A stretch of DNA of 64,000 nt from an uncultured Nitrospirota bacterium (GTDB lineage Bacteria; CG2-30-53-67), in NCBI GenBank assembly GCA_964483105.1, contig CAYZZU010000005.1, positions 24,475 to 88,474 of the forward strand, read 5' to 3'. A program made the position numbers and the translations under genes. Below the pieces are notes generated by a model. It did no database searches. It worked only from the letters and a program-made list of their open reading frames with translations, and was not told the DNA's origin. The first letter of the stretch is position 1. The number at the start of each line of letters is the position of its first letter. Below are positions 5 through 39,199 of the stretch, one piece after another.

Positions 5-436
5 ATGATCCATCGTTTCAACAGGTTGCTCGGTGTTGAGATTCGGGGTTATACCCCCGAGCTTTTAGCGGTTCTGCAAGCCTATGACTGGCCCGGGAAC
101 ATCCGGGAGATGGAGAATGTGATCAAGAAGGCCATGGTCATCTCCCAGGCGGACATCCTGAGTCTTGCAGACTGCCAGCTTCCAGAGATGGGAGCTCCGG
201 ACCCGGACCTGAAGACTCCTCCGGATCTGTCAACCATCCTGCACCAGATGCTGACCCGGGAATTTGTGGCCTCGTCACATCCCTTCGATGGGATTATCGG
301 GAAGATAGAGAAAATCCTGATTGAACAGACACTGGATCTGACCCAGGGCAACCAGCTCAAGGCATCGCATCTGTTAGGGATTGCCCGTACTACGCTGCGT
401 AAGAAGATCAAGGATTACGGGATCGAGAGTAAATAG
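5..436 (+). CDS. sigma54-dependent transcriptional activator (NtrC-family enhancer-binding protein), C-terminal fragment; the 5' end is cut by the window edge
   Basis: Contains the sigma54-activator AAA+ C-terminal signature ...AYDWPGNIREMENVI..., followed by a Fis-type HTH (QLKASHLLGIARTTLRKKIKDYGI) at the C-terminus. Confidence 0.8.
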   Translation: MIHRFNRLLGVEIRGYTPELLAVLQAYDWPGNIREMENVIKKAMVISQADILSLADCQLPEMGAPDPDLKTPPDLSTILHQMLTREFVASSHPFDGIIGKIEKILIEQTLDLTQGNQLKASHLLGIARTTLRKKIKDYGIESK

Positions 437-635: not shown

Positions 636-651
636 TGGCACATTCTTTGCT
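636..651 (+). promoter_or_regulatory. sigma54 (RpoN) -24/-12 promoter, TGGCAC-N5-TTGCT
   Basis: The sequence ttGGCACattctTTGCTc is an exact match to the GG-N10-GC consensus TGGCAC-N5-TTGC. It lies about 40-50 nt upstream of the NHL-repeat gene start and directly downstream of the sigma54 activator gene. Confidence 0.6.
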
Positions 652-687
652 CTTATTCCGGATCGGAATGTTGGGCGCCGTCAAACC

Positions 688-1680
688 TTGGATTGGGCCA
701 TGCGCAAGAGCAACTGCTGTCGAAAGAGGGATATTTCAGATTCCTGCTCGTTTCTATGGGTGTTTTCTCTTGTTCTCGCAAGTGCGGTCTTTTCTGCAAA
801 CGATGTGATTGCCCAGACCGCCCCGAAGATTACCAGCCTTTACGTGATTGATTACGGCACTTCAAGGGGCGATACCCTGGCCGCTCCGCTGGACATCTTC
901 TTCGACCGGGTTAAGAAGGAGCTTTATGTGGCCGACGCCGGCAAGCGCCGGATCCTGATCTACGACCGGAGCGGACGTTACCGGGCAAAGATCCGGCTTT
1001 TTAAGCATTACGGCCTGCCGGGAAGTTTGGTTGTGGATGGCCAGGGAAGGCTCTATATCGCCTCCACCGGTGGCTCCTCGATCACGGTTCTGGCTCCGAA
1101 CGGAGATTTCGTGAAGTCCATTGACCTGACCTCCGGTTTTCATGGGCCGGCAAAGAAACTGGGGGTTGTGTCGATGGCCCTGGGACCGGAGGGGAAGATC
1201 TTTGTGTTGACCAATCTCCGTGGTGTGATGCGGATCGATCCCGAAAATTTCGTCCTGGATCACGTTCCGTTGGAAGTTCTGGACTCGAACGGGAAACCGA
1301 GACTGGTGATGGTGCTTGTTATGACCGTGGATCCGGAGGGGCGGTTTCTCTTCGGCGAGATGCGTCCCGGTTCCGTGGTGGTCTTCAACCGGGAAGGCAA
1401 ATATGTCACCCGCTTCGGGGAATCCGGCGGCGGGCCGCATCAGGTGAGCCGTCCCACGGGTATTGCCGTCGACCGGGAGGGCCGGTTCTATGTCTTGAGC
1501 AAGATTCGTGATGTTGTGGTGGTCTTCGATCGAAACGGCCGGTACCTCCGGGAATGGGGCGGCCCGGGAATCGGCAAAGGGCTCCTCTATTCGGGAACGA
1601 GGATTGTCTATGACGGAGAGAAGACTCTGTATACCCTGGAGCCCGATCTGAAGCGGGTACAGGCCTTTCAAGTCGATTAG
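688..1680 (+). CDS. secreted NHL-repeat beta-propeller protein
   Basis: An N-terminal hydrophobic signal (WVFSLVLASAVFSA) is followed by repeated NHL-type motifs (LYVADAGKRRILIYDRSGRY, FYVLSKIRDVVVVFDRNGRY). The true start may be the internal Met at about position 700. Confidence 0.65.
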   Translation: MDWAMRKSNCCRKRDISDSCSFLWVFSLVLASAVFSANDVIAQTAPKITSLYVIDYGTSRGDTLAAPLDIFFDRVKKELYVADAGKRRILIYDRSGRYRAKIRLFKHYGLPGSLVVDGQGRLYIASTGGSSITVLAPNGDFVKSIDLTSGFHGPAKKLGVVSMALGPEGKIFVLTNLRGVMRIDPENFVLDHVPLEVLDSNGKPRLVMVLVMTVDPEGRFLFGEMRPGSVVVFNREGKYVTRFGESGGGPHQVSRPTGIAVDREGRFYVLSKIRDVVVVFDRNGRYLREWGGPGIGKGLLYSGTRIVYDGEKTLYTLEPDLKRVQAFQVD

Positions 1681-1951
1681 GAAAAACCGGGGGCGCCCCG
1701 CTTGAGAAGAACGCCCCCGGGTCCCTTGAGAACCAGTCCATTACGGGGTCAAGAGACGTGCTCAGCATAGCAGGAAAGCACGCGAAAGTAAAGACGTCTC
1801 TTCCCCCCTGGAGAGAAAGGCAGGATCGTGTCTTTCAGATTCCATCAGGAAGGGAGGTGATCAGGAGAACAGGCGTTTTTCTGTTCCAAGGGGGAATGGA
1901 AAAATATGGAAACAAAATGAGCTTCAGGAAACAAACTTCAGGAGGTTGAAA

Positions 1952-3313
1952 ATGAAACGATATGTATTCCTCACGGCAATGATTGCGGCCCTGGCCCTTT
2001 CAGCGCCGATGGCGATGGCCTTGGCGCCATCCCAGACGGGAAACGGCGTGAACACCATGCTGTTCCATTCCTATGACGGCCTGGTATGCGCCGACTGTCA
2101 CACGATCCACTTCAGTGAAAACGGGACCACGCCTGCCGGCGCCGATACGGGCGGTCCCTGGCAGAAACTTCTGAAAAAGAAGACCAATGCCGATATCTGC
2201 CTCGGCTGCCACACGGAAGGGTCGAACACGGCCGCCACGGCCTGGGGTGGAACCCTTCCTGCCGGTCAGTCCTGGACGGCTCCGATCGTCAAGACTCTGA
2301 ATGGAGAGGATCCGGACACCCTCGGGATCTCCATGCCGGCCGGTGATTTCTACTTCAGCGACCAGGACCCGGCCAAGGGGCACAACCCCGCCTGGACGCA
2401 CGGGAATCAGGCCGCGAGCATGTCGGTGGATACGGTCCTGGGAAACTGGCCTCCGACACCGCCTGGAAACGGCGCGACCGGCTATAACGAACCGGACTGG
2501 GATTGCCATACCTGTCACGGCATGCACAACCGTTTTTCCGGGAGTTACAGCGCTTGGCGTCAGGTCAAAAGGAAGGTGAACGGCATTGTCCACACCGGTG
2601 ATGTCTCGGGTCTCGGGGTCGAGACGACCACGGGCAACAAGGGAGCCACAGCCGCAGGCTATGAGCCGATTGAGAGTAACTCCCGCGGGGACATCCAGGG
2701 GACGAGCTATGTGAACCTGAGGGCCGACGGGCAGCCTCTGGATGGGGCGGATCTTTTTGCGCCCTATAGTGAGACCAATAAGAACGTCTACCGGGGCGGG
2801 TTTTCCTCTTTCTGCTCGGTCTGTCACGGGGATTTCCACGGCGGCACCGAGACCAGTTCGGCGACCGGCGATCCGACCTCTTCGACGGGGAATACCGCTG
2901 TGAGCGGTCCGCACTGGTTCCGGCACCCGACCAACGTGGCCCTGGACGGAAAGAAATACAATGTCTCCAAGTACACGGTGACTGTGACGAACTTCCAGGG
3001 GACCAATCCCAACCCTCCGGGCTATGACTGGAAATACCCCCTGCGGCGCGTGGACGGGACTTGGACCGTCACCAGCCCGAGCACAGCGGGGGAAGTGGCT
3101 CCCACCGACCGTGTCATGTGCCTGACCTGTCACTTCGCTCATGCCGGACCCAACGCCAACGCGTTGAGGTGGGATGAGGCGGGACAGCCCGCTTTCATCG
3201 CCAACGGCGCGGCCGACTCGTACCATGACACCAGCAACGGCGACAACCCGGCCTTCGGCTGCAACAAGTGCCATCAGAAGGGTGGACACAACGCCTATAT
3301 CAAGAGCTTCTAA
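1952..3313 (+). CDS. secreted hexaheme c-type cytochrome of the OmcS-like family
   Basis: An AGGAGG ribosome-binding site sits 7 nt upstream of the ATG at 1952; the ORF track starts at a TTG at 1946. There is a signal peptide (MKRYVFLTAMIAALALSAPMAMA). Six CxxCH motifs are present (CADCH, CLGCH, CHTCH, CSVCH, CLTCH, CNKCH), with an MPAGDF motif and a C-terminal CNKCH. Spacing and motif flavour resemble Geobacter OmcS as I recall it (CEGCHTMHN ... CNKCHAKD). Confidence 0.75.
   Translation: MKRYVFLTAMIAALALSAPMAMALAPSQTGNGVNTMLFHSYDGLVCADCHTIHFSENGTTPAGADTGGPWQKLLKKKTNADICLGCHTEGSNTAATAWGGTLPAGQSWTAPIVKTLNGEDPDTLGISMPAGDFYFSDQDPAKGHNPAWTHGNQAASMSVDTVLGNWPPTPPGNGATGYNEPDWDCHTCHGMHNRFSGSYSAWRQVKRKVNGIVHTGDVSGLGVETTTGNKGATAAGYEPIESNSRGDIQGTSYVNLRADGQPLDGADLFAPYSETNKNVYRGGFSSFCSVCHGDFHGGTETSSATGDPTSSTGNTAVSGPHWFRHPTNVALDGKKYNVSKYTVTVTNFQGTNPNPPGYDWKYPLRRVDGTWTVTSPSTAGEVAPTDRVMCLTCHFAHAGPNANALRWDEAGQPAFIANGAADSYHDTSNGDNPAFGCNKCHQKGGHNAYIKSF
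2996..3133 (+). repeat. approximately 138-nt near-identical tract shared with 4510-4647 (paralog duplication or gene conversion)
   Basis: Aligning by eye, caggggaccaatcccaaccctccgggctatgactggaaata...gtgcctgacctgtcac differs from the second copy at only a minority of positions. Confidence 0.6.
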
Positions 3314-3340
3314 CCTGGACTCCGGTCCGGGTGTAGTCAG

Positions 3341-3372
3341 GCGGGGGGGGAATCCCTCCCCCGCCGTTTGAA
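3341..3372 (+). terminator. possible intrinsic terminator hairpin after the first OmcS-like gene
   Basis: A GC-rich inverted repeat (gcgggggggg aatccct ccccccgc) is followed by cgTTTgaat. The U-tract is weak. Confidence 0.3.
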
Positions 3373-3420
3373 TGGGATGGTTTTGTGAAAGGCCCGCCGA
3401 TTTTTCCTCTTCAGAAAAAA

Positions 3421-3435
3421 GGCGGACTTTCTGCA
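3421..3435 (+). promoter_or_regulatory. weak sigma54-like -24/-12 element (aGGcgg-N5-cTGCa) upstream of the second OmcS-like gene
   Basis: The GG-N10-GC spacing is conserved about 30 nt upstream of the ATG at 3466. The flanking consensus bases are only partly matched. Confidence 0.25.
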
Positions 3436-3465
3436 AGGCCATCGCACATCGATCGAGGGAAGTTC

Positions 3466-4827
3466 ATGATGCACAAAAGGATGTCAGGACGATGGGGAAA
3501 AGCTGTTTTCCGGATGATCTGCGGGGCGCTCCTCTGCGTGGAGATCGGGTTCCTGCAGACCGGTCCGGCGGAGGGCGCGGGTCTCGCCCCACGCGGGAGC
3601 CGGACCGGCCTCTTCCATGTCTATGACGCACTGACCTGCAGTTTCTGCCACACCGTGCATTACAGTGAGGGAGGAACGACTCCACAGAATGCCGATATCG
3701 GGGGTCCCTTTCAGAAACTCCTCATCAAGCGGAGTACCACCGACCTCTGTCTGGGATGTCACGCGGAGCCGGCGGCCCAGCTTTTCGGAGCGCCGATGGT
3801 CATGACCCTGAATGGGACCAATCCGGCCCTGGCGAGCCGGGCCATGCCGGCCGGTGATTTTTATTATTCAAACGTGAACCCGGCAAACGGTCACAATCCG
3901 ACCTGGACCAACGGCCATACCTCGACGGTTCTCGCAACGGACCCGGTCCTCGCCCCTTCCTTTCCACCCAGTCCGCCGGGCCTGGATATCGTATGGACCG
4001 AACCGAACTGGGACTGCACAACCTGCCACGGGGCGCACAACCGTTTCGGCGCGGAAATTACGGCGTGGCGGCAATTGAGACGGACCATCAACGGCGTGGT
4101 TCACACCGGGAGTGACACCGTGGCCCTCGGGGTGGAGCTGGACGGGGGAGACCAGGGGGCGACCACAGTCGGGTATGAACCGATCGCCAGCAATTCCCGG
4201 GGATATATTGACGGGACCTCTTATTACCGGAAACGGGCCGACGGCCAACCGCTGGACGGCGCCGACCTTTTCGCGCCCGAGGGACCGACCAACAAGAACG
4301 TCTACCGGGGGGGATTCTCCTCCTTCTGCGCCGTCTGCCACGGAGCCTTCCACGGAGGGACGGAGACCGTCATGGATTCGACTTCCGTGGCGACCTCCAG
4401 CACCGGCAACACGGCCGGGACCACTCACTGGCTCCGGCATCCGACCAATGTGGCCCTGAACGGGATCCGGTATAATGTGGCCAAATACACGGTGACCGTG
4501 AGCAACAGCCAGGGGACCAATCCCAACCCTCCAGGCTATGACTGGAAATATCCGCTCCGCAGGGTGGATGGAACCTGGACCGCGACCAGTCCGAGCACGG
4601 CGGGGGAGGTGGCTCCCACCGACCGGGTTATGTGCCTGACCTGTCACAAGGCGCATGCCTCCCAGTACTCGAATTCACTGCGGTGGGACAATGCCGGTCA
4701 TGCGGCCTTTCTCGCGAACGGAGAGTTGGATGGATATTATGAGGCATCGAATGGTGACAACCCGGCCTACGGGTGCAACAAGTGCCATCAGAAGGGGGGC
4801 GCCAGCGCCTTTTCAAAGTCTTTCTAA
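3466..4827 (+). CDS. secreted hexaheme c-type cytochrome, OmcS-like tandem paralog
   Basis: I chose the first in-frame ATG with a hydrophobic signal (MMHKRMSGRWGKAVFRMICGALLCV); the ORF track begins earlier at 3385. Six CxxCH motifs (CSFCH, CLGCH, CTTCH, CAVCH, CLTCH, CNKCH) occur in the same order and spacing as the upstream paralog. The two genes share near-identical nucleotide tracts. Confidence 0.75.
   Translation: MMHKRMSGRWGKAVFRMICGALLCVEIGFLQTGPAEGAGLAPRGSRTGLFHVYDALTCSFCHTVHYSEGGTTPQNADIGGPFQKLLIKRSTTDLCLGCHAEPAAQLFGAPMVMTLNGTNPALASRAMPAGDFYYSNVNPANGHNPTWTNGHTSTVLATDPVLAPSFPPSPPGLDIVWTEPNWDCTTCHGAHNRFGAEITAWRQLRRTINGVVHTGSDTVALGVELDGGDQGATTVGYEPIASNSRGYIDGTSYYRKRADGQPLDGADLFAPEGPTNKNVYRGGFSSFCAVCHGAFHGGTETVMDSTSVATSSTGNTAGTTHWLRHPTNVALNGIRYNVAKYTVTVSNSQGTNPNPPGYDWKYPLRRVDGTWTATSPSTAGEVAPTDRVMCLTCHKAHASQYSNSLRWDNAGHAAFLANGELDGYYEASNGDNPAYGCNKCHQKGGASAFSKSF
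4510..4647 (+). repeat. second copy of the conserved tract between the tandem OmcS-like genes
   Basis: See 2996-3133. It encodes the same GTNPNPPGYDWKYPLRRVDGTW..APTDRVMCLTCH peptide. Confidence 0.6.
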
Positions 4828-4843
4828 CAGAACAGGGGAAACG

Positions 4844-7042
4844 ATGAAAATCAAGATCAGACGGGAACCGGTTCGAACCCTCATCCAGGGTGTTCAGGGC
4901 ATCCTGATCACTCTGTCTCTCCTTGTGGTATCCTGCGCGGAGGCGGCCACTCTCCCGAACGGCGGCTGGAGTCCGATCTGCTCTCCGGACGGGTCCAGAG
5001 TGCTCTTTCTCTCCTCGTCCATGCACATGCCCGGAAAACTCTGGGTCATGAACGTGGATGGGAGCGGAATTCGGCGGTTGACCGCGTTCGGTGTGGTGCA
5101 CCCCTCCTGGTCCTCGGACGGCCGGTCCATCTTCTTCTCCCGGTGGGGGGAGCGCACGGCAAACCGGGAAAGTCTCCGGATCGAGCCCTCCACTTCGTCC
5201 CGGGGCGTGCCCTCCGTTCCCGATGCCGCGCTCGATTTTGCCTTTTCTCCCGATCGGGGTTTCCTTGCCTATATCCTGGCTGCCGGGCCTCACCGGGATC
5301 TCTGGATCGCGAAGGCCGACGGGACCGGGCGCCGGGGGGTGACGGAAAAACTCTTCGTGCGTTCCGTCACCTGGTCTCCGCGCGGAAAGTCACTTCTCTT
5401 CACGGAGGGGAAGACCTACGGGAACGGAATCTGGTCCGTGGACCCCTCCACGGGGGCGCTTCGAAATCTCGTTCGTGGTTTCTGTGGGACGCCTTTCTTT
5501 TCTCCGGATGGGAATCGAATCGCCTACGTCTTCCCCTGGAATCAGGTGAAAGGGAAGGAGGGCCGATACGGCATTCGGATCCTGCAGACGGACGGGAAGG
5601 GACGGAAAGAATACCAGGCGCCTCACCTCGACGGGCTGCGTCTTGCCTGGACCCCCGACGGGTCCGGGATCTGCTATACGGGAGAGGCGAAAGTCAAGGG
5701 CAGCCTGGGGCAGTCCTACAAGATGACCCACCTCAAGGCTGCCCCGGAGGAGCCGGAAATGGAACGGGCGGTCTGGAGGCTGGATCTCCGGGAGGGAAAG
5801 GAAGAGCGCCTGACGCCGTCCGGCCTGACGGTCGGTTCCTTCTCCTGGTCCCCGGACGGGGGGCGTCTTCTGCTGGGTGGAGTCCAAAACACCGGTTTTG
5901 CCTCCGAGGTATGGAGTCTTTCCTTTCCCGGGCATACGCTGAAACGGCTGGTCGCAAGCCGTTCCTCCGATTGGCTTCCCACTCCCTTTCCGGACGGGAC
6001 GCGTGTCGCCTATCTCAGCAATCGGAACCACAGCGGAATGCTGATCCTGACCGATGATGAAGGACGGGAAATCCGTCGTTTTGACCCCCTGGCGATTACG
6101 GGAGAGGACCGGATCGCCCTTCTGGACGACGAGAAGGTCCTCTTTCTCTACAATCCATCCGGGTTCCGGATGGTGGACCTGGCTGAAAATACGCGGTTGC
6201 ATCTGCATGTGGCTCCCAAGGCGAAACTCCTGGAATTGAGGACCTCTCTCCAGGAAAGGAAGATTTTGATCGATGCGCTTCGAAAGTATGACGGGTTTCC
6301 TCAGCTTAGTCTTCTGACCGGGAAAGGGGATTCTCTTGGAGAGGTCGACCTGGGTGGGAGGAGAGTTGAAATGCAGCCACGATGGTCCTTCGACGGCAAA
6401 AAGATTGCCTTTACCGACGGGGTGGACCTCTGGCGGATGGATACGAATGGAAAGAACCGGACGCGGCTGACTCATTTCAGGGAGGAAAACGAACACCCGG
6501 GCATCTGGAAACGATGGATGGAACGGCTGAGGGGAGGACGAACCCGTTCCTTTGTTTCCGATCCGTTCTGGTCTCCGGACGGATCCCGAATCGCTTATGT
6601 CGTCACGGTATACCGGAACCCGGGGAATCCTGAGAGAGAGGTCTGGTGGAGCAATCCGGACGGAAGCTCCGCCCGGAGGATCTATTCGGAGGAGATTACC
6701 GTTCCGGACCAGACCCTGGTCTCGGATCGAACGACATCCCCTTTTTTTGACCTGGACGGGAAATTCATCTTTCTAACCTCCATGATCGGGGGGCTGCCGA
6801 ACCTGATCTCCGTTCATCTCACGGATCGGGAGGTTCGGGTCCTGACGAAAACCGGGGCGCTTTTCCCCTCTCTGTTGCCTGAACAGGAAGAGATTCTCTA
6901 TACCGCCCTGGATGGGGAGGAGGAGCATCTGATGGTGATGAACCTGGATGGAAGCGGCAAAAGGCCCTTTCTGATACCTGACGCAGGGAAAGCGTCGAAC
7001 GTTGTGCGAGGCGGGATAAACCATGCTTCAGCGGATTTTTAA
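4844..7042 (+). CDS. TolB-like PD40/WD40-like beta-propeller repeat protein, probable lipoprotein
   Basis: The start is set at ATG 4844 (MKIKIRR), with a GGGGAA ribosome-binding site, because the track ORF from 4655 overlaps the upstream gene. The signal and possible lipobox is ...LLVVSC. At least 10 PD40-type repeats are present (FSPDGSRVLF, WSSDGRSIFFS, FSPDGNRIAY, WTPDGSGICY, WSPDGGRLLL, WSFDGKKIAFT, WSPDGSRIAYV). Confidence 0.7.
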   Translation: MKIKIRREPVRTLIQGVQGILITLSLLVVSCAEAATLPNGGWSPICSPDGSRVLFLSSSMHMPGKLWVMNVDGSGIRRLTAFGVVHPSWSSDGRSIFFSRWGERTANRESLRIEPSTSSRGVPSVPDAALDFAFSPDRGFLAYILAAGPHRDLWIAKADGTGRRGVTEKLFVRSVTWSPRGKSLLFTEGKTYGNGIWSVDPSTGALRNLVRGFCGTPFFSPDGNRIAYVFPWNQVKGKEGRYGIRILQTDGKGRKEYQAPHLDGLRLAWTPDGSGICYTGEAKVKGSLGQSYKMTHLKAAPEEPEMERAVWRLDLREGKEERLTPSGLTVGSFSWSPDGGRLLLGGVQNTGFASEVWSLSFPGHTLKRLVASRSSDWLPTPFPDGTRVAYLSNRNHSGMLILTDDEGREIRRFDPLAITGEDRIALLDDEKVLFLYNPSGFRMVDLAENTRLHLHVAPKAKLLELRTSLQERKILIDALRKYDGFPQLSLLTGKGDSLGEVDLGGRRVEMQPRWSFDGKKIAFTDGVDLWRMDTNGKNRTRLTHFREENEHPGIWKRWMERLRGGRTRSFVSDPFWSPDGSRIAYVVTVYRNPGNPEREVWWSNPDGSSARRIYSEEITVPDQTLVSDRTTSPFFDLDGKFIFLTSMIGGLPNLISVHLTDREVRVLTKTGALFPSLLPEQEEILYTALDGEEEHLMVMNLDGSGKRPFLIPDAGKASNVVRGGINHASADF

Positions 7043-7988
7043 AAAAGAGAGGCCATATCCCCTGTTCCGCGCGCTCTGTGCAGTTGCGGTTCTATTACTT
7101 GGAATACCGGGAGCGGCGCGTGCCGTTCGTCCCAGAGAAATTGTTGAACAGGGTTTTTTCGGACGGGGACTGCAGGAACCGGCAAGCCTCTGGTTTGACC
7201 GGTACCGGAATCGGATTCTGGTCGCGGATACGGGGAATCATCGGGTGATGGTCTATTCCACGGACGGGAAAGAGCTTTTGCGGTTAGGCCGGCGTGGAGA
7301 ACTCGCCTTCCCGTTCGGGGTGGCCTCGGATCGCGCCGGGAATCTCTATATCAGTGAACAGAAGAGCGGCAGAGTGAAGGTCCTGCGACATTATGATGAA
7401 ATTCAGCAGTCGCTGGATAAAAAAGAGGAATATATCAACCTGCCACTCGAGGAAACCGGGGGGAAGAAACCGGCCAAGGCGGGCCGGATCTTCGTGGGGA
7501 AGGACGACCGGATCTACATGATTGATACGGCGAATCAACGCGTGCTCGTTCTGAACCCGGACGGCGCATTCCTCCTGGCCTTCGGCGCCCATGGAATCGG
7601 CAGGGGAAAATTTCTGCGTCCCGCCGATCTCTGTCTCGATTCCGCCGGAAGGATCTATGTCACGGATCCCGGCGCCGAACGGGTCCAGGTCTTTACCAGC
7701 CGGGGGAAATTTCTCTACCGTCTGGGACGGGATATCCGCCGGGTGCAGGGAATCGACTTGGCCGTGGGGATTGCCGTGGACCGGATGAACAACGTCTGGA
7801 TGACCGACCGCGCGCGCCGGAATCTTTTCGTGGAGGACCAGAATGGAAACCGGGTCTTTCAATATCCCGAAGGAAACGGACCGGGTATCTTTTCCTTTCC
7901 AGTCGGGCTGGCTTTCGGTACCACGGATCGTCTCTATGTACTGGAAAAGGGGTCCGGAACCATCCGCGTTTTCGGGATACGGTACTGA
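7023..7988 (+). CDS. secreted NHL-repeat beta-propeller protein
   Basis: A signal peptide (LFRALCAVAVLLLGIPGAARA) is followed by NHL motifs (ILVADTGNHRVMVYSTDGK, IYVTDPGAERVQVFTSRGKF, LYVLEKGSGTIRVF). Confidence 0.7.
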   Translation: MLQRIFKKERPYPLFRALCAVAVLLLGIPGAARAVRPREIVEQGFFGRGLQEPASLWFDRYRNRILVADTGNHRVMVYSTDGKELLRLGRRGELAFPFGVASDRAGNLYISEQKSGRVKVLRHYDEIQQSLDKKEEYINLPLEETGGKKPAKAGRIFVGKDDRIYMIDTANQRVLVLNPDGAFLLAFGAHGIGRGKFLRPADLCLDSAGRIYVTDPGAERVQVFTSRGKFLYRLGRDIRRVQGIDLAVGIAVDRMNNVWMTDRARRNLFVEDQNGNRVFQYPEGNGPGIFSFPVGLAFGTTDRLYVLEKGSGTIRVFGIRY

Positions 7989-7989
7989 A

Positions 7990-8922
7990 ATGATGAATGC
8001 GAAACGAGTCATTTTCACCGGGTGGGTGACCGCGGTCTTGATTTTCCATGCCACGCTTCTTCCCGCCGGATCCTTCCCGCCGATCCGATTTGTGAAGGCG
8101 GTGACGGAACAGGGTGGAGCGCCCCTGTTCCGGGATCCTCTGCAGATGTCCCTGGCCCCCTCTCTTCATGAGGTTGCCGTGACCAATTCAGGAAGCGGAG
8201 ATATCGTCCTGTTGAGGGTGGAGGACGAGAAGGTTCTGCTTCGGATCACCGGACGTTCCGGTTTGCGGCCGCCCTTTGGCATTCATCTCAATCCGGACAA
8301 AACGATCCTGGCGGGGGAACTGACCGGCCGGGAAGGTTTGAAACTTTTTGATCCGACCGGCCGATTGCTGGATCGGTGGGACCTGATCCGAGCCTGCGGT
8401 TATCCGATCCGTCCGGGGAGGATCCGCGCGACGGGTGACGGAGGAACTCTCGTGGTCGAACGGCTGCGCGACCGGGTCCTCGTGCTGGGGCCGAAGGGAA
8501 AACTCCGGAAGATCATCGGGAAGGAAGAAAAGCTGGACCAGGTGCAGGATGCCGCTCCCGGTCCGGGAGGAAGGCGGTTCTTTGTCCTTTGCAACGGGGG
8601 CAAGGCCGTCCGGGTTTTTTCCGGGAAGGGAAGGTTTCTGTACGCCTTCGGAAGACACGCCGCTTCCCCCGACAGTTTTTCCTTCCCCTGCGCCCTTTCT
8701 TTTGACCGGAGGGGTAGACTGTGGGTCGTGGATGCCTTTCAGCATCGTCTCAAGGTCTTTTCCCCGGAAGGAAAGTTTCTTTTCCAGTTCGGAGGGCTCG
8801 GCATGAAACCGGATCAATTCTTCTTCCCGGTAGACCTGGCCTTCGCGGGCCGGTCGCGGCTCTGGGTTCTGGAAAAGGGAGCGAACCGGATTAAGATCTA
8901 TGACGTGGAGGACCTGAAATGA
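7990..8922 (+). CDS. secreted NHL-repeat beta-propeller protein (third paralog)
   Basis: The start at ATGATG 7990 overlaps the previous stop (ctgaAATGATG). There is a hydrophobic N-terminus (VIFTGWVTAVLIFHATLLPAGS). NHL motifs are present (LWVVDAFQHRLKVFSPEGKF, LWVLEKGANRIKIYD). Confidence 0.65.
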   Translation: MMNAKRVIFTGWVTAVLIFHATLLPAGSFPPIRFVKAVTEQGGAPLFRDPLQMSLAPSLHEVAVTNSGSGDIVLLRVEDEKVLLRITGRSGLRPPFGIHLNPDKTILAGELTGREGLKLFDPTGRLLDRWDLIRACGYPIRPGRIRATGDGGTLVVERLRDRVLVLGPKGKLRKIIGKEEKLDQVQDAAPGPGGRRFFVLCNGGKAVRVFSGKGRFLYAFGRHAASPDSFSFPCALSFDRRGRLWVVDAFQHRLKVFSPEGKFLFQFGGLGMKPDQFFFPVDLAFAGRSRLWVLEKGANRIKIYDVEDLK

Positions 8923-9902
8923 TGAGTGGTCGAAAGATCTGTCATCGTCTCCTGACCGTTGCTCTGATCGCTTTTCTGAACGGAGTGGCCGTGCGGCCGA
9001 TTCCGGCCGTCACCCAACACGATTTAGCCCATCGGACCGAGAAGTGTTCCGACTGCCATACCATGCATTACAGCCGGGAAGGAGCGGTTCCTTCCAACGC
9101 GGAATTGGGAGGACCCTTCAACCGTCTCCTGATCCGGGCGACCACAAACAAACTTTGCCTTTTCTGTCACGACGGGACCGATGTCCGGGCTCCGGACGTG
9201 TTGGCGCCGGTGACGATGTACAACGGATCCGGTGACGAACATTCCGGGGCGGGTTTCTTCGAATTCAGCGGTGGAACGGCAAGCGGAAAGGGCCATGACC
9301 TCGATGTCGATGCCGCAACGGTCCCTTTCAGCACCCTGACCCATATCAGCCTGACCTGCGCGAGTTGTCATGATCCCCATGGTTCGACGAACTTCCGTAA
9401 CTTGTTGACGGCCCCTGCGGGGGGTGCCGGCACCCCGGTGGTACTGGGCGTGGATGTGTTCACCTCGGTCTCGCCGGCGGATCCTCCCACGGCCGCCGGA
9501 TCGATTGCCGCCTATCGGGCTTCCAACATCGGTTATAAGTCCTCCATGTCCGCCTGGTGTGTCCAGTGCCACGACCAGCCGCATACGGTGAGTATGATCG
9601 ACAAATCGCTCCCCGACTTGACACATTGGGTCAACGGGACAGGTGCCGGTTTCGGGGTTCAGACCGGCGACACGATCGAGGGAGTACCCCGTCTCCGGTT
9701 CAAGAATCCCGCAGCCACCGATTATGTCACGGCCCGTACAGTGGGGCAGGGCAACCAGGGAATCTGTGAAAGCTGCCATTTCGCCCATGGGGGCCCCTAT
9801 CTGAAGGATCTTGTCTGGCCGTACCTGGAAGTCCCGGCGCAGGCCGATACCAATTCCGGATGTTACCAGTGTCATGGAACCATGCCGACGAGTTTTCCCT
9901 GA
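8919..9902 (+). CDS. secreted hexaheme c-type cytochrome, OmcS-like and shorter
   Basis: The ATGA overlaps the upstream stop. There is a signal peptide (RLLTVALIAFLNGVAV). Six CxxCH motifs are present (CSDCHTMHY, CLFCH, CASCHDPHGS, CVQCH, CESCHFAHGG, CYQCH). The first and third motifs resemble the OmcS motifs CEGCHTMHN and CSSCHDPHGK as I recall them. Confidence 0.7.
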   Translation: MMSGRKICHRLLTVALIAFLNGVAVRPIPAVTQHDLAHRTEKCSDCHTMHYSREGAVPSNAELGGPFNRLLIRATTNKLCLFCHDGTDVRAPDVLAPVTMYNGSGDEHSGAGFFEFSGGTASGKGHDLDVDAATVPFSTLTHISLTCASCHDPHGSTNFRNLLTAPAGGAGTPVVLGVDVFTSVSPADPPTAAGSIAAYRASNIGYKSSMSAWCVQCHDQPHTVSMIDKSLPDLTHWVNGTGAGFGVQTGDTIEGVPRLRFKNPAATDYVTARTVGQGNQGICESCHFAHGGPYLKDLVWPYLEVPAQADTNSGCYQCHGTMPTSFP

Positions 9903-9953
9903 GGAATGCGTCCGTGAAGAATGAGAATGTGTTCAGAGGATAGAGAGGTTGGA

Positions 9954-11399
9954 ATGAACAAGCGAATCAACACAGATCCGGCTGCGGGAACGCGCCCGAT
10001 CTCCGAAGGACCGCGGCGACGGATCAGCCTGGGACTCCTGCTCCTCTGTGTCGCGGTACTGTATGGGTCTCCCTGCCGCGCCGTTTCCCGGGAGATCCCG
10101 ATTCATCTCGATCCATTGAAAGGGGCCTTGCGGGACCCGGATCTTCCGCGCGGGGCCTGCAACCAGTGTCACCTCTTCCGATCCGGACGGACGGGTCCAA
10201 GCGCCTCGCTCTGGACCGGGAACGACAACACCCTCTGCTATCAGTGCCATGCGGGGTGGAGCCGAACCGGGATTTACCCGGGGCAGCAGGATTATGAACT
10301 CTCGACGCATCAGCGGGATTCCCGCATGGTCTGGCCGGGTCCCAGGCCGAAGGCCCGTCTGGAACCGGATGCCGCGGGGAAATGCGTCAATTGTCACGAC
10401 CCGCATGGAATCAAGGATCGTTTCGGCCTGATCCCGGCCCTGCTTTTCCGGCGGGACAGCCGTCTCTGCCTGACCTGCCACAACGGCCGTCAGTCCCGGG
10501 TGAATCTCGAGGCTGAATTCAGGAAGCCTTACCGTCATCCGCTGGATCGGTCCGTGGGTCGACACCGGCCCGGGGAGGGGAATCATCCCGGCCGATACGG
10601 CATTTCCAACCGGCACGTCTCCTGTTCGGATTGTCACAACCCGCATACGGTTCGGTCGGACGCGGTTGCTCCGAAGCCCCCGGACGTTTCGAACCGGAAC
10701 CGCTGGGTCAGCGGGGTACGGGTCATCAACCGGGGCGCCGGATCGATCCCCTCTTATATTTACCGCAGTCCGTTGGATCGATCGACCCCGCTCAAGGAGT
10801 ATGAGATCTGCTTCAAGTGTCATTCTTCCTGGACGGTACAGCCTCCCGGACAGACCGATCTGGCCAAGTTTCTGAATCCCAACAACCCTTCCTATCACCC
10901 GGTGGAGTCCCTGGGGAAAGATCTTCAGATCCCGGATATCGCGTTTGTGCGTGGGTGGACGGCGCGCAAGATGACTTACTGCGGGGATTGCCACGGCAGC
11001 GATGACTCGAATATCCGGGGGCCGCACGGTTCACTGTATCCCAATCTGCTTCACGCCCGGTATCCCGCCTCTTCGAATCTTCGTTCCATGGGTCCGGATG
11101 AACTCTGTTTTTCTTGTCATAACTACAAGACCTATTCCGATTCGAACGCGGCCCCGGCGATCCTGGAAGGGAGCCGATGGAATCCTCCGATGGCCGCAAA
11201 TGGGCATGCCTACCACGTGGGTGATCAACGAACCCCCTGTTACGCCTGCCATGATTCGCATGCGTCGACGAGCTTTCCCGCCCTGATCCGAACGGGGCGC
11301 ACCCCGGGGTTGAGGTCTTTTACGCAGAGTCCGGGTGGAGGAAGCTGCACGGCAACCTGTCATCCCTCCCGATCTTATCGCGTCAATTATTCGAGATAG
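9954..11399 (+). CDS. secreted decaheme c-type cytochrome (9 CxxCH plus a C-terminal CTATCH, i.e. CX3CH)
   Basis: CNQCH, CYQCH, CVNCH, CLTCH, CSDCH, CFKCH, CGDCH, CFSCH and CYACH are followed by the atypical CTATCH. The N-terminus has a long n-region and a hydrophobic core (ISLGLLLLCVAVLYGSPCRA). The start could be 9921 (track) or 9954 (MNKRIN). Confidence 0.75.
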   Translation: MNKRINTDPAAGTRPISEGPRRRISLGLLLLCVAVLYGSPCRAVSREIPIHLDPLKGALRDPDLPRGACNQCHLFRSGRTGPSASLWTGNDNTLCYQCHAGWSRTGIYPGQQDYELSTHQRDSRMVWPGPRPKARLEPDAAGKCVNCHDPHGIKDRFGLIPALLFRRDSRLCLTCHNGRQSRVNLEAEFRKPYRHPLDRSVGRHRPGEGNHPGRYGISNRHVSCSDCHNPHTVRSDAVAPKPPDVSNRNRWVSGVRVINRGAGSIPSYIYRSPLDRSTPLKEYEICFKCHSSWTVQPPGQTDLAKFLNPNNPSYHPVESLGKDLQIPDIAFVRGWTARKMTYCGDCHGSDDSNIRGPHGSLYPNLLHARYPASSNLRSMGPDELCFSCHNYKTYSDSNAAPAILEGSRWNPPMAANGHAYHVGDQRTPCYACHDSHASTSFPALIRTGRTPGLRSFTQSPGGGSCTATCHPSRSYRVNYSR

Positions 11400-11411
11400 G
11401 AAAAGGAGGTT

Positions 11412-13076: not shown

Positions 13077-13088
13077 GAGGAACACGGT

Positions 13089-13706
13089 ATGAAACGAAGA
13101 TGCGGTTTTTGCAGAACCGGATTCACACTTTCCATTCTTCTGGCGTTCCAGTTGGTTACGGCCGGATGTGGGGGAGTGTCCATCCGGAAATATATTCACC
13201 CGGACGCCGACATGTCCTTTTACAAGAAGGTGGGCGTGATCCCCTTTCGCAACCTTTCTTCCGACCGGTTGGCCGGAACCAAACTGACGGAAACCTTTGT
13301 GACCGAATTGATGATTCCGAACCGGTTTGAAGTAGCTCCGCCGGGGGAATTCCGGCATATCGTCCAGAAGGTGAGTCTGGCCGTGGGCCCGATTTCCGAG
13401 GTGGAGTTTGTGCCCGCGCAGTTGAAGAAGATCGCGAAGGAGTCCGGGGTCCAGGGAATCTTCATGGGGACCGTTCAGGAATATGAAATGACCCGGATCG
13501 GACAGGCGCAGTATCCCGTGATTTCGTTGAATGTCCGGTTCGTGGACGCCGAGACCGGGACCGTGGTCTGGCAGGAGAGTTATTTCGAGCGGGGTGGTCC
13601 GAAGCTGCCGGTCCTCGCCATCGGAGAGATCATGACGCTGGGTGAATTAAGTCAAAGAACCTGCAGACATGTGATGCGGGATTTCTATCACAGCAAACTC
13701 TTTTAG
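13089..13706 (+). CDS. lipoprotein, CsgG-like or TolB N-terminal domain-like (paralog 1)
   Basis: The lipobox is LVTAGC, with an AAGAGGA ribosome-binding site. The motifs KVGVIPFRNLSSDR ... VISLNVRFVDAETGTVVWQES are reminiscent of CsgG family lipoproteins (KIFVSVYNIQD ... VNLRVVNVSTGEIL). This is recalled from memory, so the family assignment is tentative. Confidence 0.4.
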   Translation: MKRRCGFCRTGFTLSILLAFQLVTAGCGGVSIRKYIHPDADMSFYKKVGVIPFRNLSSDRLAGTKLTETFVTELMIPNRFEVAPPGEFRHIVQKVSLAVGPISEVEFVPAQLKKIAKESGVQGIFMGTVQEYEMTRIGQAQYPVISLNVRFVDAETGTVVWQESYFERGGPKLPVLAIGEIMTLGELSQRTCRHVMRDFYHSKLF

Positions 13707-13760
13707 ACTCAACCGTCGGATTGGAGAGGCCGGGAGGATTGCCGGCCGGAAAGGAGTCCT

Positions 13761-14408
13761 ATGAACCGGATCATTTCAGCCGGGGACCGAGTGAAAACGT
13801 TTACGGTCCTCTTCCTGACCCTCGTCTCAATTGGAGGATGGATCGGTTGCCATGCCGTTGTGCCATCCGGCATGACGCCGCAATCCCGATGGAAGGTGGC
13901 GATTCTGCCATTTGAAAACCTCAGCAACGAAGAAGGCGCCGGCCGGATTGCCGGAAACATATTCCTGGTCAAGGCGCTGAACTCCGGGGTGTTTGATATC
14001 GCGGATCCGGGGGCCGTGGACGAGGAATTAGGCGCGGAACGTGTTCGTCTAACGGCCCATATCCCTCTTGAGACCCTTCGGAAAATAGGGAAGCGGCTGC
14101 AGGTTCATTATATCCTGATGGGGAGCGTCCTGGAAGATGAGATGCAGATATTAAGCGGTGTGGGCGGTGGCGGCCAGGTTCCTTCGGTTGCTTTGACAAC
14201 CCGGATGATCGACGTCCGGACCGGGCGTGTGGTCTGGGCGGACGCGCAGTCCAAGCGGGGCACGGATTATGAAAAAATCTTCGGATTCGGAAGAATTTAT
14301 TCGACGAGCCGGCTCATGGAGATTGTGACGGAAAAGATGGTCTCCTCTTTAACGCGCTCCCTCGCGAAACAGGGGCTCGAACCTGGAGATGGAAAGGCGG
14401 GAAAATGA
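13761..14408 (+). CDS. lipoprotein, CsgG-like or TolB N-terminal domain-like (paralog 2)
   Basis: The lipobox is WIGC, with an AAGGAG ribosome-binding site. The motifs KVAILPFENLSNEEGAG ... VALTTRMIDVRTGRVVWADAQSKRG show the same architecture as the upstream paralog. Confidence 0.4.
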   Translation: MNRIISAGDRVKTFTVLFLTLVSIGGWIGCHAVVPSGMTPQSRWKVAILPFENLSNEEGAGRIAGNIFLVKALNSGVFDIADPGAVDEELGAERVRLTAHIPLETLRKIGKRLQVHYILMGSVLEDEMQILSGVGGGGQVPSVALTTRMIDVRTGRVVWADAQSKRGTDYEKIFGFGRIYSTSRLMEIVTEKMVSSLTRSLAKQGLEPGDGKAGK

Positions 14409-14974
14409 AAGGTATGTGGATTGTCCTGGTGAGTTTTCTTATGCTCCTGAGCGCCGGGACCTCCGGCGTCTGCGCGGTTTCGGCCCGCTTCGTAGGTGTT
14501 CGAAAATGCCGCATCTGCCACTTGAAGGAATACAAAAGTTGGGCGGAGACTCCGATGTCCAGGGCCTTCGACCTGCTGAAACCCGGTGTCGACAGCGCGG
14601 CCAAGGTGGCCGTGGGCCTGAGGGGGGAAAAGGATTACACGGAGGATCCCGCCTGTCTGAGGTGTCATGTCACCGGAGGGCGGACCGATCTGCCCGGGGT
14701 ACAGTGCGAGGCCTGCCACGGACCCGGTTCCGGCTATATCAAGGTCATGATCATGAACCGGCATTACCTTCGAAAAGAACTCTCCGAAAAGGGACTTCGG
14801 GATGCCGGAAAGCCGGACTGTGTCCGGTGTCATAATTCGAAGAGTCCATTTTACAAGGGATTCAATTATGAACAGTACGCCCGACGGGAACTCCACTTCC
14901 AGGTGTTCTCCGTACCGGGGGTCCACAAAAAGTTCCCCTTGAAATTTCAACATACGTCATCAGGTAAGGAGTAA
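14405..14974 (+). CDS. small periplasmic tetraheme c-type cytochrome
   Basis: The ATGA overlaps the upstream stop. There is a signal peptide (MWIVLVSFLMLLSAGTSGVCA) and four CxxCH motifs (CRICH, CLRCH, CEACH, CVRCH) in 189 aa. Confidence 0.75.
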   Translation: MKGMWIVLVSFLMLLSAGTSGVCAVSARFVGVRKCRICHLKEYKSWAETPMSRAFDLLKPGVDSAAKVAVGLRGEKDYTEDPACLRCHVTGGRTDLPGVQCEACHGPGSGYIKVMIMNRHYLRKELSEKGLRDAGKPDCVRCHNSKSPFYKGFNYEQYARRELHFQVFSVPGVHKKFPLKFQHTSSGKE

Positions 14975-14978
14975 TTCC

Positions 14979-17900
14979 ATGCGCATGAACCGTTTCTGTC
15001 GGGTTGTTCTCCCGCTTCTTTGTCTCAGCATCCTCGGCGCCGGGGTTGTGATCGCCTTTTCCCCGACAAGTTCTGAAGCGAGGGTCAAGGCCTGTTACGA
15101 CTGTCACCAGGATGCCCGAAAGGCCTTTCGAAAGAAAACGGTTCATGACCCGGTAGCGAAAAAAAATTGCGAGGCCTGCCACTCGCGGCACGGGTTTACG
15201 AATAAACTGATCCTGAAGAAAACCGGTCCGGATCTCTGCTTTGATTGCCACCGGGATGCGAAAAAGAACTTCAGCCGGGGGAGTGTCCATGCCCCGATCG
15301 ACGAGGGGAAATGCACGGCCTGTCACGATCCGCACGCCTCCGACGGCAAGTCCCTCCTGAAGGCGAAAAAAACGGAAACGCTATGCCTCTCCTGCCATAC
15401 CGGCCTTGCCCGGGAGAAGAAAAAAGAGGTGCTGCATCAGCCCTTCGCGGAAGGAAACTGCCTGGCCTGCCACGATCCTCACAACGCGGAAGGCAAAGCT
15501 CTGCTCCTCAAGAAGGGGAACCTCCTCTGCGTGAAATGCCATCCGGGCCGTCAAATCGCCGCGTCATCCTCCCATCGTTCAATTGATTCGAAGACAAGCT
15601 GTCTTTCCTGCCATCGTCCCCATGCCTCGGACGCGAAGCATCTGCTGGACTCCAGCCTGCATCTCCCCTTCGCGGAGGGCAAATGCGACTCATGCCATAC
15701 CGAAGCCGCGCCCGGCAAAGAGGCGGCACTGAAAAAACCGGTGCGGGAACTCTGCGTGCAATGTCACGCGGAGGTGTCCCGACAAACCGAGAGGGGCCAT
15801 GTCCATCCCCCGGCCGGAGAGGGGAATTGCACTCTTTGTCATGATCCCCATCAGAGTCCGAATCGTCCCCTGCTCAAGTCCCCGCAAAAGGCCCTTTGCC
15901 TCACCTGTCACTCCGACCAGGCGGGACGGTTCAAACAGCCGACACTGCATCCCCCCTTCGCGTCGGGTAAATGTTCCTCCTGTCATGAACCGCATGGATC
16001 GGAGAATGCTCGCTTGCTTCGGTCCGGTCTGAAGCCGCTCTGCCTTTCGTGTCACAAGGCGTTGGCGGAACGTCTCCGGAAGTCCGGGTCGGTCCACCCG
16101 GCTCTCCGGAACAAGAATTGCCTGGGATGCCATACGGCTCACAGTTCCGATGAGCCGGGGCTTCTTCGGCAGGATCAGTCATCGCTGTGCCTGACCTGTC
16201 ATCAGGATTTTCAGAAGGCGTTGAATGTTTCCCATCCGCATCGGCCGATCGTGAAGGGGAAATGCTCCTCCTGCCATGCTCCGCACGCCTCGGATCAAAA
16301 AAATCTTCTGAAAAAGGAAGGGGTCTGCTTTACCTGTCATCAAGATCTTGGAAAACCCGGGAAGGGAATGCGATTGCATGCCCCCTTTGCTTCGGAGAAA
16401 TGCGGTGTCTGTCATAACGCGCACGGCAGTGAGAAGAAAAACTTTCTGATTCTGCCCGAAAAGGAGCTCTGCGCGCAGTGCCACTCCATCGAAAAGATCC
16501 TTTCCCGTAAATCCGTACATACCCCTGTGGCGGACGGAAACTGCTCGGGCTGTCACGATCCCCACTTTGCTTCCAACAGGAACCTGCTGCGCAAAACCGG
16601 TTTCAAACTCTGTTTCAGTTGTCATGACGGTACGTCGTTTAAATACGGGATCGTTCATAAACCGGTCCATGAAGGCCGTTGTGATCTTTGCCATTCGGCG
16701 CATGGTTCGGATGTGGCGGGGGATCTGTCCCAGCCCGAGGGGAAGCTCTGCAGGACCTGTCACTCCTTTGATGAGAAGGCGTTCCCCAGCGTGATGCTGT
16801 CCGACGCACACCGTGGAAAGAAATGTTCCATCTGCCACGATCCGCATTCCTCAGCGGGAGATCCCAACCTGATCCGGAAACAGAAGAATCCCCATTTTGA
16901 CCAGTGTAATTTCTGTCATGATGACTCCGCTCCGGAGGGAAGTTTCCGGCTTCTACCCAAAAAACAGAGCGATTATTTTTCTTCTCTGCGGGACACCTCC
17001 GGGAACGGGAAGGGGGATTTCGAGGGGAAGGTCGTGCACGAACCGGTGCGCAGGGGGGAATGTGTGCTTTGTCATGCGTCACACGCCACGAACGTGAAGG
17101 ATGATCTTCTGAACCGGACCGTTCCGGATCTCTGTTTTACGTGCCATACGAAGACCAAGACGGAGCTGAAGCGGAAATTCACGCATACCCCGTTCCGTTC
17201 CGGAGAATGCCGGACGTGCCATAACGCGCATACCTCGTCCGCGCCCGGGCTGTTGCGGAAACAGACGGTGAAACTCTGTTTTTCCTGTCATGAAGACCTG
17301 AAGGTGAAACTCGCCTCCGAGAAGGTGCATCAACCGGTGAAAGAAGGGAAATGTCTGGCGTGTCACGACGCGCACGCCACGGGAAACAGCGCGCTGCTGA
17401 AGAAGAAGGCAAGACGCATCTGCCTTGAGTGCCATGACACCGGGAAAACAGGTTTTGTCAAGGCCCACTTCCGGCACAGGGATATGGCCGGCACCGATTG
17501 TCTCAGTTGTCATGACGCCCACTCCGTTCCCAAGAGCAGCCGGAAGTTGCTGAAACCGCATGCTCATCCTCCTTACGAGGCCGGAATGTGTGACGCCTGC
17601 CACACCACGAACGACGCACTGACGGTAACCGACACTTCGGAAAATCTCTGTTTCGGATGCCACGAGGACGACCCGGGTGAGTTTCATCAGTCGGATAAGC
17701 ATCATGCCTTGAAGATCAGGCGGAAATGCCTCAACTGTCACTCTCCACACCTGGGGTATACGGAGCAGAACCTGCGTAATCCGATCCCGGCCCTCTGCTT
17801 TTCCTGTCATGGTTCCGGGATCATGGGGAAAAAGCATAAGCATCCGCCCGCCACAGTAACCTGTCTGCTCTGTCACAGACCCCATTCGACGAAGGATGAT

Positions 17901-39108: not shown

Positions 39109-39199
39109 CGCGTGGTCTGTCTACGTGTGTTGTCTACCCGAAGTGTTTTTCAAATGCTTCGGGTTTTTTTTCAATCGGCTGCGTGCAGGCAGGTTTCAA

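Follow-up and report, generated by a model that had tools for sequence, protein, structure and literature searches.

Beta-propeller genes in an osc-like operon of OmcS-family cytochromes from an uncultured Nitrospirota bacterium and their possible role in cytochrome export and assembly

The export of multihaem cytochromes and their polymerization into conductive filaments are, to our knowledge, still largely unsettled, and we know of only one such machinery that has been studied genetically, the osc operon of Geobacter. Here, we describe a cluster of the osc kind in a 64-kb stretch of DNA (64,000 nucleotides of contig CAYZZU010000005.1, hereafter the window) from an uncultured Nitrospirota bacterium. 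The promoter-proximal half of its operon, 688-8922, contains the genes of four beta-propeller proteins, namely three with NHL repeats (NHL1, NHL2 and NHL3) and one lipoprotein with PD40 repeats, which are set among genes for hexahaem cytochromes of the OmcS family (cyt1, cyt2 and cyt3). Sequence comparison makes it fairly probable that the propellers serve as scaffold or chaperone subunits with no redox function, encoded in an osc-type operon for the export and assembly of OmcS-family cytochromes.

In G. sulfurreducens, the omcS-companion (osc) operon extends over GSU2504-GSU2493, with GSU2500-2493 as a block. In papers that cite its description (Shen et al. 2025, Cell Chem Biol 32:239), folding is attributed to OscH, secretion to OscEFG and nanowire morphology to OscD. 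In their minimal form, the OmcE clusters of Desulfuromonadia combine the filament subunit with multihaem cytochromes, a large beta-barrel and two lipoproteins of the beta-propeller type, and the barrel and the two lipoproteins are always present (bioRxiv 10.1101/2025.10.22.684050). In outline this is also the parts list of the window, a likeness by description only, the sequences of propellers and barrel aside; OmcE is a tetrahaem protein unrelated in sequence to OmcS. In Desulfovibrio ferrophilus IS5, NHL genes lie among multihaem cytochrome genes and are co-expressed with them (DFE_0448-0451 and DFE_0461-0465), and their products were proposed to stabilize the complex (Deng et al. 2018). The NHL genes are embedded there as they are in the window, but the cytochrome clade is stated to be distinct from OmcS, and neither a PD40 protein nor OscEFG-like genes are reported. 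In the Uet cluster of Ca. Tenderia electrophaga and Gallionella, the NHL propellers UetH and UetI stand beside multihaem cytochromes and the beta-barrel UetC, and the Occ cluster of Ca. Dechloromonas occultata has "6-NHL repeat proteins" beside multihaem cytochromes. Two NHL propeller genes adjoining multihaem cytochromes and a beta-barrel recall the window; however, the Uet and Occ cytochromes are undecahaem and trihaem proteins outside the OmcS family, the prolyl isomerase UetB has no equivalent in the window, and these systems have been connected with the uptake of electrons or the reduction of Mn(III) in Proteobacteria.

That propellers travel with extracellular cytochromes is already known. 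An earlier note on this DNA had called the association unusual, but it is recurrent and has been published for osc (OscD), the OmcE clusters, D. ferrophilus, Uet and Occ. In the literature covered, which did not include the text of Shen et al. 2025, no published description of a PD40 protein combined with such cytochrome systems was found. New here are the definition of a second gene order, termed type II, the tight and exclusive linkage to it of a rare lipoprotein with a PD40 tandem propeller, the lack of OscD and OscH, and a fusion that places an NHL propeller within an OscE-like protein.

Co-occurrence of propeller and cytochrome genes

A scan with a fragment of G. sulfurreducens OmcS over one genome per species gave 76 loci from Geobacteraceae, Nitrospirota, Rokubacteria, Acidobacteriota, Myxococcota and other groups, and the open reading frames (ORFs) of these loci were labelled with the window proteins and with iterated hidden Markov models (HMMs). 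G. sulfurreducens itself was not retrieved, and the best match was a Geobacteraceae metagenome-assembled genome (MAG; locus L005, 81% identity); L005 stood in for it, as did two isolates, Geomonas oryzae (L079) and Citrifermentans bremense (L016). In the order that we call type I, a kinase and sigma-54 regulator pair, which is found upstream of many OmcS loci, is followed by an NHL gene, one to three hexahaem genes, the OscD-type YncE/lactonase-like propeller lipoprotein and OscE of ~740 aa, and then by the OscF lipoprotein of ~200 aa, OscG of ~400 aa, the SurA-like prolyl isomerase OscH and a 26-haem cytochrome. In 39 of the 54 OmcS-homologue loci with enough flank, an NHL gene on the same strand preceded the OmcS homologue by at most 3 kb, and an OscD-type propeller lay downstream of the hexahaem gene in 53 of 66 loci. 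The isolates G. oryzae and C. bremense are among the OmcS-homologue loci with propeller genes. The upstream NHL gene, present in most other OmcS loci, is missing from the closest sulfurreducens-like loci (L005-L010 and L013).

The order of the window, type II, runs NHL, hexahaem(s), PD40, NHL, NHL, short hexahaem, decahaem, barrel, lipoprotein, lipoprotein and a cytochrome of ~1045 aa. It recurs identically in six further independent loci (L081-L086), obtained from the contexts of cyt3 homologues and PD40 orthologues; their sources are two Logan assemblies/contigs, a Deltaproteobacteria MAG (L082), a Nitrospiraceae MAG (L083), another NCBI MAG and a contig of the Joint Genome Institute (JGI). 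A Zixibacteria locus (L004) shows a type II-like order without PD40 and with two modules swapped. As far as gene order can tell, the type II architecture is present in MAGs labelled Deltaproteobacteria and Nitrospiraceae and on contigs without a label, and Zixibacteria, Poribacteria and Abyssubacteria have forms related to it.

The PD40 protein has few orthologues, and their group is sharply bounded. Among 5.8e9 proteins, they comprised 13 clusters at 371 bits or more, after which the scores dropped to 143 bits, and full-length matches were a handful in 1.84e9 representatives, against more than 200,000 generic PD40 matches. All seven orthologue loci inspected are type II clusters. The homologue search with NHL2 yielded one clear orthologue amid a swamping number of generic NHL-repeat proteins. 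The earlier note had made its proposal depend on phylogenetic co-occurrence of the propellers with OmcS-family genes, and such co-occurrence was clearly found, across phyla. Judged by sequence and gene order, the propellers are conserved, haem-free accessory genes of the OmcS-type extracellular cytochrome operon.

Propellers, cytochromes and outer-membrane components

Pfam and hhalign results together with the gene positions corroborated the earlier statement that three NHL propellers are interleaved with the OmcS-like genes. The description of the NHL and PD40 proteins as non-redox also held, with a CxxCH motif count of 0 in all four propellers, which are the sole NHL- or PD40-family ORFs of such kind within the window. 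NHL1 matched the Pfam NHL family with 29.0 bits (cut-off 20) and SGL with 41 bits. Its family aligned with the upstream NHL proteins of type I loci (hhalign 99.9%, E 2e-36), and NHL1 was the best window match of the type I NHL HMM (6e-29); on these alignments, it corresponds to the NHL gene found ahead of the OmcS homologues in most loci. NHL2 scored 85.7 bits with Pfam NHL (PF01436; cut-off 20). It is the only one of the NHL proteins whose fold was modelled, and its AlphaFold2 (AF2) model had 25 strands forming six blades (predicted local distance difference test [pLDDT] 88.4, predicted template-modelling score [pTM] 0.85), with the NHL domains of TRIM2, TRIM3 and Thin as top Foldseek matches (target-normalized template-modelling score 0.79-0.85). 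NHL3 scored 17.3 bits with Pfam NHL, under the cut-off of 20; since its family nevertheless aligned with the NHL2 family at hhalign 100% (E 4.6e-43), we regard it as an NHL propeller and a paralogue of NHL2. All three NHL proteins have type I (Sec) signal peptides and no recognizable surface-export or anchoring domain.

The start of the PD40 protein was placed at 4844, following the JGI gene call, rather than at the first ATG of the ORF at 4655. The protein scored 80.4 bits with Pfam PD40 (cut-off 20.9) and carries a lipobox, LVVSC, that is retained in most orthologues. The earlier description of a 10-blade PD40 lipoprotein was accordingly right in family and lipid anchor but not in blade number, as the AF2 model (pLDDT 77.7, pTM 0.77) shows ~54 strands, or ~13-14 blades, in a tandem double propeller. 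Its best structural matches were likewise tandem double propellers (2ymu, Aip1 1nr0, tricorn 1k32 and LRP6), and it is propeller from end to end, with no peptidase or other catalytic domain. Two candidate identities were rejected. The protein is not TolB, given a score of 146.3 bits against the NCBIfam equivalog TIGR02800 (cut-off 343), the tandem double propeller and the small distinct group of orthologues; nor is it a divergent OscD (hhalign probability 0.8%).

Each of cyt1, cyt2 and cyt3 contains six CxxCH motifs. The label OmcS-like, used for these genes from the outset, was supported for cyt3 by a direct match to OmcS (6ef8; phmmer E 6.5e-10, segments in order) and for cyt1 and cyt2 by hhalign. 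Against 91 OmcS homologues, the cyt1/cyt2 family reached 100% (E 5.7e-39) and the cyt3 family 99.8%, while PDB sequence searches returned no relative for cyt1, cyt2 or the decahaem cytochrome, cyt4. The haem motifs of cyt1 and cyt2 are spaced at 46, 83, 185, 288, 390 and 437, and those of the OmcS-like protein of L005 at 32, 70, 163, 263, 356 and 429. cyt1-3 share the extended motif CxxCHxxH with 93 of 96 OmcS-family proteins. Its second His is presumably OmcS His16, the ligand to the haem of the neighbouring filament subunit, and its presence in cyt1-3 is suggestive only, hinting at a filament-type subunit contact. Where cyt3 occurs, it is always adjacent to cyt4 and the OscE-like barrel. The giant cytochrome at the end of the operon contains 41 haem motifs in its sequence, with 21 Paired_CXXCH stretches, and scored 380-430 bits against the type I 26-haem proteins; its counterparts carry 41-42 haems where the gene order is type II and 26 where it is type I.

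The likeness of the window to osc extends beyond the OmcS-family hexahaem paralogues with an adjoining propeller lipoprotein. The window also has OscE-, OscF- and OscG-like outer-membrane components, a giant multihaem OscI-like cytochrome, the upstream kinase and sigma-54 regulator, and an NHL gene before the hexahaem gene, as in most non-sulfurreducens loci. The 554-aa protein aligned with the OscE family over 479 columns (hhalign 98%, E 1.9e-13), in both its N- and C-terminal parts. Because it has a signal peptide and a C-terminal Phe that is invariant in 8 of 8 orthologues, it fits an outer-membrane barrel; it had no Pfam match, and the profile search of the PDB gave no relative. The lipoprotein Lpo205 aligned with OscF (hhalign 99.8%, E 2.4e-28) and p215 with the C-terminal domain of OscG (residues 229-390; hhalign 99.6%, E 2.7e-24), and the lipobox is conserved in both.

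The window lacks OscD and OscH and has instead the PD40 lipoprotein, two extra NHL propellers, and an extra compact hexahaem and decahaem cytochrome. Its OscE-like protein has 554 aa against ~740 aa in the Geobacter type, being without an insert of ~210 aa; its OscG is reduced to the C-terminal domain, and its giant cytochrome has 41 haems against 26. No OscD orthologue was found in the window, in which the best match of the OscD HMM was NHL1 (E 6e-5). NHL2 and NHL3 are distant from OscD (hhalign only 96%, E ~3e-9); together with the PD40 protein they occupy the equivalent region. The similarity between NHL proteins and OscD was considered as orthology and rejected as generic propeller relatedness, the iterated NHL HMM having drifted into OscD. 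The OscH query was the L079 homologue, a SurA-like protein (Rotamase_2, 3.9e-27), which matched 33 type I loci; it had no match at E<=10 among window ORFs of at least 70 aa or in any type II locus. Given that the PD40, NHL2 and NHL3 genes and the cyt3/cyt4 pair stand where type I has OscD and OscH, the two sets show a complementary distribution. On these alignments, the window is a less-described variant of a known osc-type system.

Role of the propellers and competing explanations

The earlier note had suggested a structural or assembly role, for which we infer the best support, because the propellers co-occur with the cytochromes across phyla and share with them one tightly packed sigma-54 operon; proposals made for related systems agree. 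The propellers would sit in the periplasm or at the outer membrane as non-redox scaffold or chaperone subunits, NHL1 being paired with the long hexahaems cyt1 and cyt2, and the PD40-NHL2-NHL3 block with the module of cyt3, cyt4 and the OscE-like protein. There they would hold or hand over unpolymerized cytochrome subunits and dock on the OscE-like channel, thereby aiding export, polymerization or anchoring, and they would do the jobs that in Geobacter are assigned to the OscD propeller lipoprotein and the SurA-like prolyl isomerase OscH. Haem-free propellers of comparable habit are known from BamB of the BAM complex and TolB of the Tol-Pal system, which are lipid-anchored or periplasmic, dock on an outer-membrane barrel and handle unfolded or unassembled clients, and in curli secretion by CsgG, CsgE and CsgF, CsgG/LpoB-like lipoproteins lie beside the fibre subunit gene. 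The comparison is an analogy without sequence orthology: the TolB equivalog score was 146 bits against a cut-off of 343, and the CsgG match was weak (E 2e-5).

Docking on the channel is suggested by proteins of other phyla. In Poribacteria (L087:12909-15314) and Abyssubacteria (L088:12620-15007), the protein at the OscE position has ~800 aa and contains an inserted NHL propeller (NHL2 HMM E 1e-54; hhalign 98.8%). An OscE-like N-terminal part is followed by the propeller (residues ~170-470) and by an OscE-like C-terminal part ending in Phe, and both loci alternate NHL, hexahaem, NHL, hexahaem. In the manner of a Rosetta-stone fusion, this arrangement suggests that the stand-alone NHL propellers act physically on the OscE-like component and may dock on the outer-membrane channel. 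At the site of the NHL insertion, Geobacter-type OscE has an unrelated insert of ~210 aa (L005:14981-17284, residues ~255-465; L079:12461-14695), with a weak F5/8 type C (galactose-binding-like) match in G. oryzae. A cryptic NHL propeller in type I OscE was also considered and was rejected, the middle domain showing no similarity to NHL families. It is possible, and we put it forward tentatively, that type II is a second architecture of the OmcS-type assembly machine, in which the PD40-NHL2-NHL3 trio would replace both OscD and OscH, its two NHL members docking on the OscE-like channel.

Several points weigh against a scaffold or chaperone role. The signals of NHL1-3 are type I signal peptides only, so that periplasm and surface both fit. 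Without an OscD orthologue and OscH, the machinery may work differently, and the argument from the fusion is indirect, being drawn from other phyla. In Geobacter, none of the paralogues of OmcS, but only OmcS itself, is known to form filaments. In addition, the adjacency of the decahaem cyt4 and the barrel also fits a porin-cytochrome conduit.

The last point leads to the main rival, namely that the propellers stabilize a fixed trans-outer-membrane conduit with cyt4 inside the OscE-like barrel and cyt3 outside, for which no nanowire is needed. Cytochrome and barrel genes are likewise adjacent in MtrCAB-type modules, which resembles the constant adjacency of cyt3, cyt4 and the barrel, and the restriction of known polymerization to OmcS itself favours the conduit as well. 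Exactly such a stabilizing role was proposed by Deng et al. for the D. ferrophilus NHL propellers. We nevertheless hold this explanation to be rather unlikely. The barrel, Lpo205 and p215 are homologous to OscE, OscF and OscG, which the literature ties to OmcS secretion; cyt1-3 keep CxxCHxxH, with what we take to be the inter-subunit haem ligand OmcS His16; and NHL1 pairs with cyt1 and cyt2, which have no barrel of their own.

A location at the surface, where the propellers would serve as binding modules, either as adhesins for minerals, electrodes or partner cells or as a sheath or anchor of the filament, appears improbable to us; a sheath or anchor and a mineral-binding surface were among the examples that the earlier note had given. 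The NHL protein Gmet_0556 was reported to be important for Fe(III) reduction in G. metallireducens, probably via adhesion, and NHL and PD40 propellers are generic interaction platforms; however, the PD40 protein has a plain lipobox, the Sec signals of NHL1-3 are plain and come with no recognizable domain for surface export or anchoring, and OscD, the propeller at the equivalent position, is also a lipoprotein. Still less can be said for propellers that act as enzymes of the lactonase/SGL-like kind, or as substrate-gating peptidase propellers, and mature or modify the cytochromes. Weak Pfam/NCBIfam similarity to SGL/gluconolactonase, Vgb lyase, and the DPP-IV N-terminal, tricorn N-terminal and Atxe2 isopeptidase propellers points in this direction, but all scores are far under the family cut-offs (e.g., TolB, 146 vs 343 bits; Atxe2, 100 vs 400), the PD40 protein leaves no room for a catalytic domain, and the structures nearest to NHL2 are non-enzymatic NHL domains. 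That the propeller genes are unrelated chance neighbours of the cytochrome genes can be dismissed, common as NHL and PD40 repeat proteins are in genomes generally, since order and spacing are conserved in Deltaproteobacteria, Nitrospiraceae, Zixibacteria, Poribacteria and Abyssubacteria MAGs, NHL lies upstream in 39/54 OmcS loci and PD40 orthologues in type II clusters in 7/7, and the genes overlap.

The conserved propellers, the swap of OscD and OscH for the type II trio and the NHL-in-channel fusion give testable hypotheses on which parts touch, and the propeller and type II genes may serve as improved genomic markers when extracellular electron transfer is to be predicted for uncultured bacteria.

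Operon layout and neighbouring features

The gene series was assembled by combining the listed ORFs with Pfam/NCBIfam scans and with gene calls made on identical JGI metagenome contigs. It forms one plus-strand, sigma-54-driven operon of ~17.5 kb (636-18128; Table 1).

Table 1. Positions of the operon genes and associated elements in the window
Feature	Positions	Strand	Remarks
Sigma-54-dependent response regulator, C-terminal end	5..436	+	Full gene and HAMP/HisKA kinase upstream on parent contig
Perfect sigma-54 (-24/-12) promoter TGGCACATTCTTTGCT, TGGCAC-N5-TTGCT	636..651	+	49 nt 5' of NHL1 ATG
NHL1, secreted NHL-type propeller	700..1680	+	ORF opens at 688
Hairpin, GC-rich, 13-bp stem	1687..1720	.	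Within 265-nt NHL1-cyt1 spacer, just past NHL1 stop
cyt1, OmcS-family hexahaem, 453 aa	1952..3313	+	CxxCHxxH present
cyt2, OmcS-family hexahaem, 453 aa, cyt1 paralogue (62% identical)	3466..4827	+	
PD40 tandem double-propeller lipoprotein, 732 aa, ~13-14 blades	4844..7042	+	
NHL2, secreted six-bladed NHL propeller	7023..7988	+	
NHL3, secreted NHL-type propeller, NHL2 paralogue	7990..8922	+	ORF opens at 7843
cyt3, compact OmcS-like hexahaem, 327 aa, CxxCHxxH	8919..9902	+	
cyt4, decahaem (9 CxxCH + 1 CX4CH)	9954..11399	+	Always paired with cyt3
OscE-like outer-membrane protein, 554 aa	11412..13076	+	Signal peptide, invariant C-terminal Phe
Lpo205, OscF-like LpoB/GNA1162-type lipoprotein	13089..13706	+	
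p215, OscG-like (C-terminal domain) CsgG/LpoB-type lipoprotein	13761..14408	+	
Cytochrome c554-like tetrahaem	14405..14974	+	
41-haem giant cytochrome, 1049 aa, OscI/GSU2495-type counterpart	14979..18128	+	

Perfect sigma-54 promoter matches numbered 2 in the window, with 0.02 expected. As the first of them stands directly before NHL1, NHL1 is taken to be the first gene of the regulated unit, and a matching motif lies immediately 5' of the NHL gene in five type I loci (L035, L039, L060, L067 and L078). For the regulator pair at locus L001, gene 1-116 matches HisKA/HATPase_c and gene 109-1518 matches Response_reg, Sigma54_activat and HTH_8. In G. sulfurreducens, GSU2506 and GSU2507, a sigma-54 regulator and a kinase, stand beside omcS and parallel the pair that adjoins the window operon. 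On motif and gene position, the sigma-54 promoter and the adjoining kinase/response-regulator pair are the predicted control of the operon. Scans for sigma-70 promoters and terminators gave only background levels in the window. The hairpin behind NHL1 is preceded by an A-run and has no U-tract after it on the plus strand; it is for this reason a possible processing or stability element, and it could give rise to differing mRNA levels for NHL1 and the cytochromes.

Where the propeller genes meet in this tightly packed operon, they overlap or are 1 nt apart. The PD40 and NHL2 genes overlap by 20 nt (7023-7042). Of the two overlaps of stop and start codons mentioned in the earlier note, the ATGA of NHL3 and cyt3 at 8919-8922 is real, while the one of NHL2 and NHL3 at 7986-7992 turned out to be a 1-nt spacer (TGA-A-ATG).

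Beyond the end of the cluster, a divergently oriented hexahaem cytochrome gene of ~280 aa (18339-19205, minus strand) occupies a position that is conserved in L001, L002 and L081. Directly 5' of it lies a cyclic di-GMP (c-di-GMP-I) riboswitch at 19270-19357 on the minus strand (RF01051, 57.4 bits vs a gathering score of 35), an arrangement that recalls the GEMM-I riboswitches preceding extracellular cytochrome genes of Geobacter. The second perfect sigma-54 match, TGGCACCTATCTTGCT (20158-20173, minus strand), lies close to where a response-regulator gene of that strand has its 5' end, upstream of this riboswitch and cytochrome. The ORF at 20547-23858 (plus strand) encodes 1103 aa with an N-terminal membrane anchor; it had no Pfam match at E<=1e-5, looks TamB/AsmA/YdbH-like by eye, and is probably unrelated to the cluster. 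Farther downstream, the window contains one tRNA (30135-30217, plus strand) and a flavin mononucleotide (FMN) riboswitch (38981-39109, plus strand; 116 bits) ahead of an ORF, and purL- and purF-type genes, leuS, lepA and Na+/H+ exchanger/TrkA genes are among its other large annotated ORFs.

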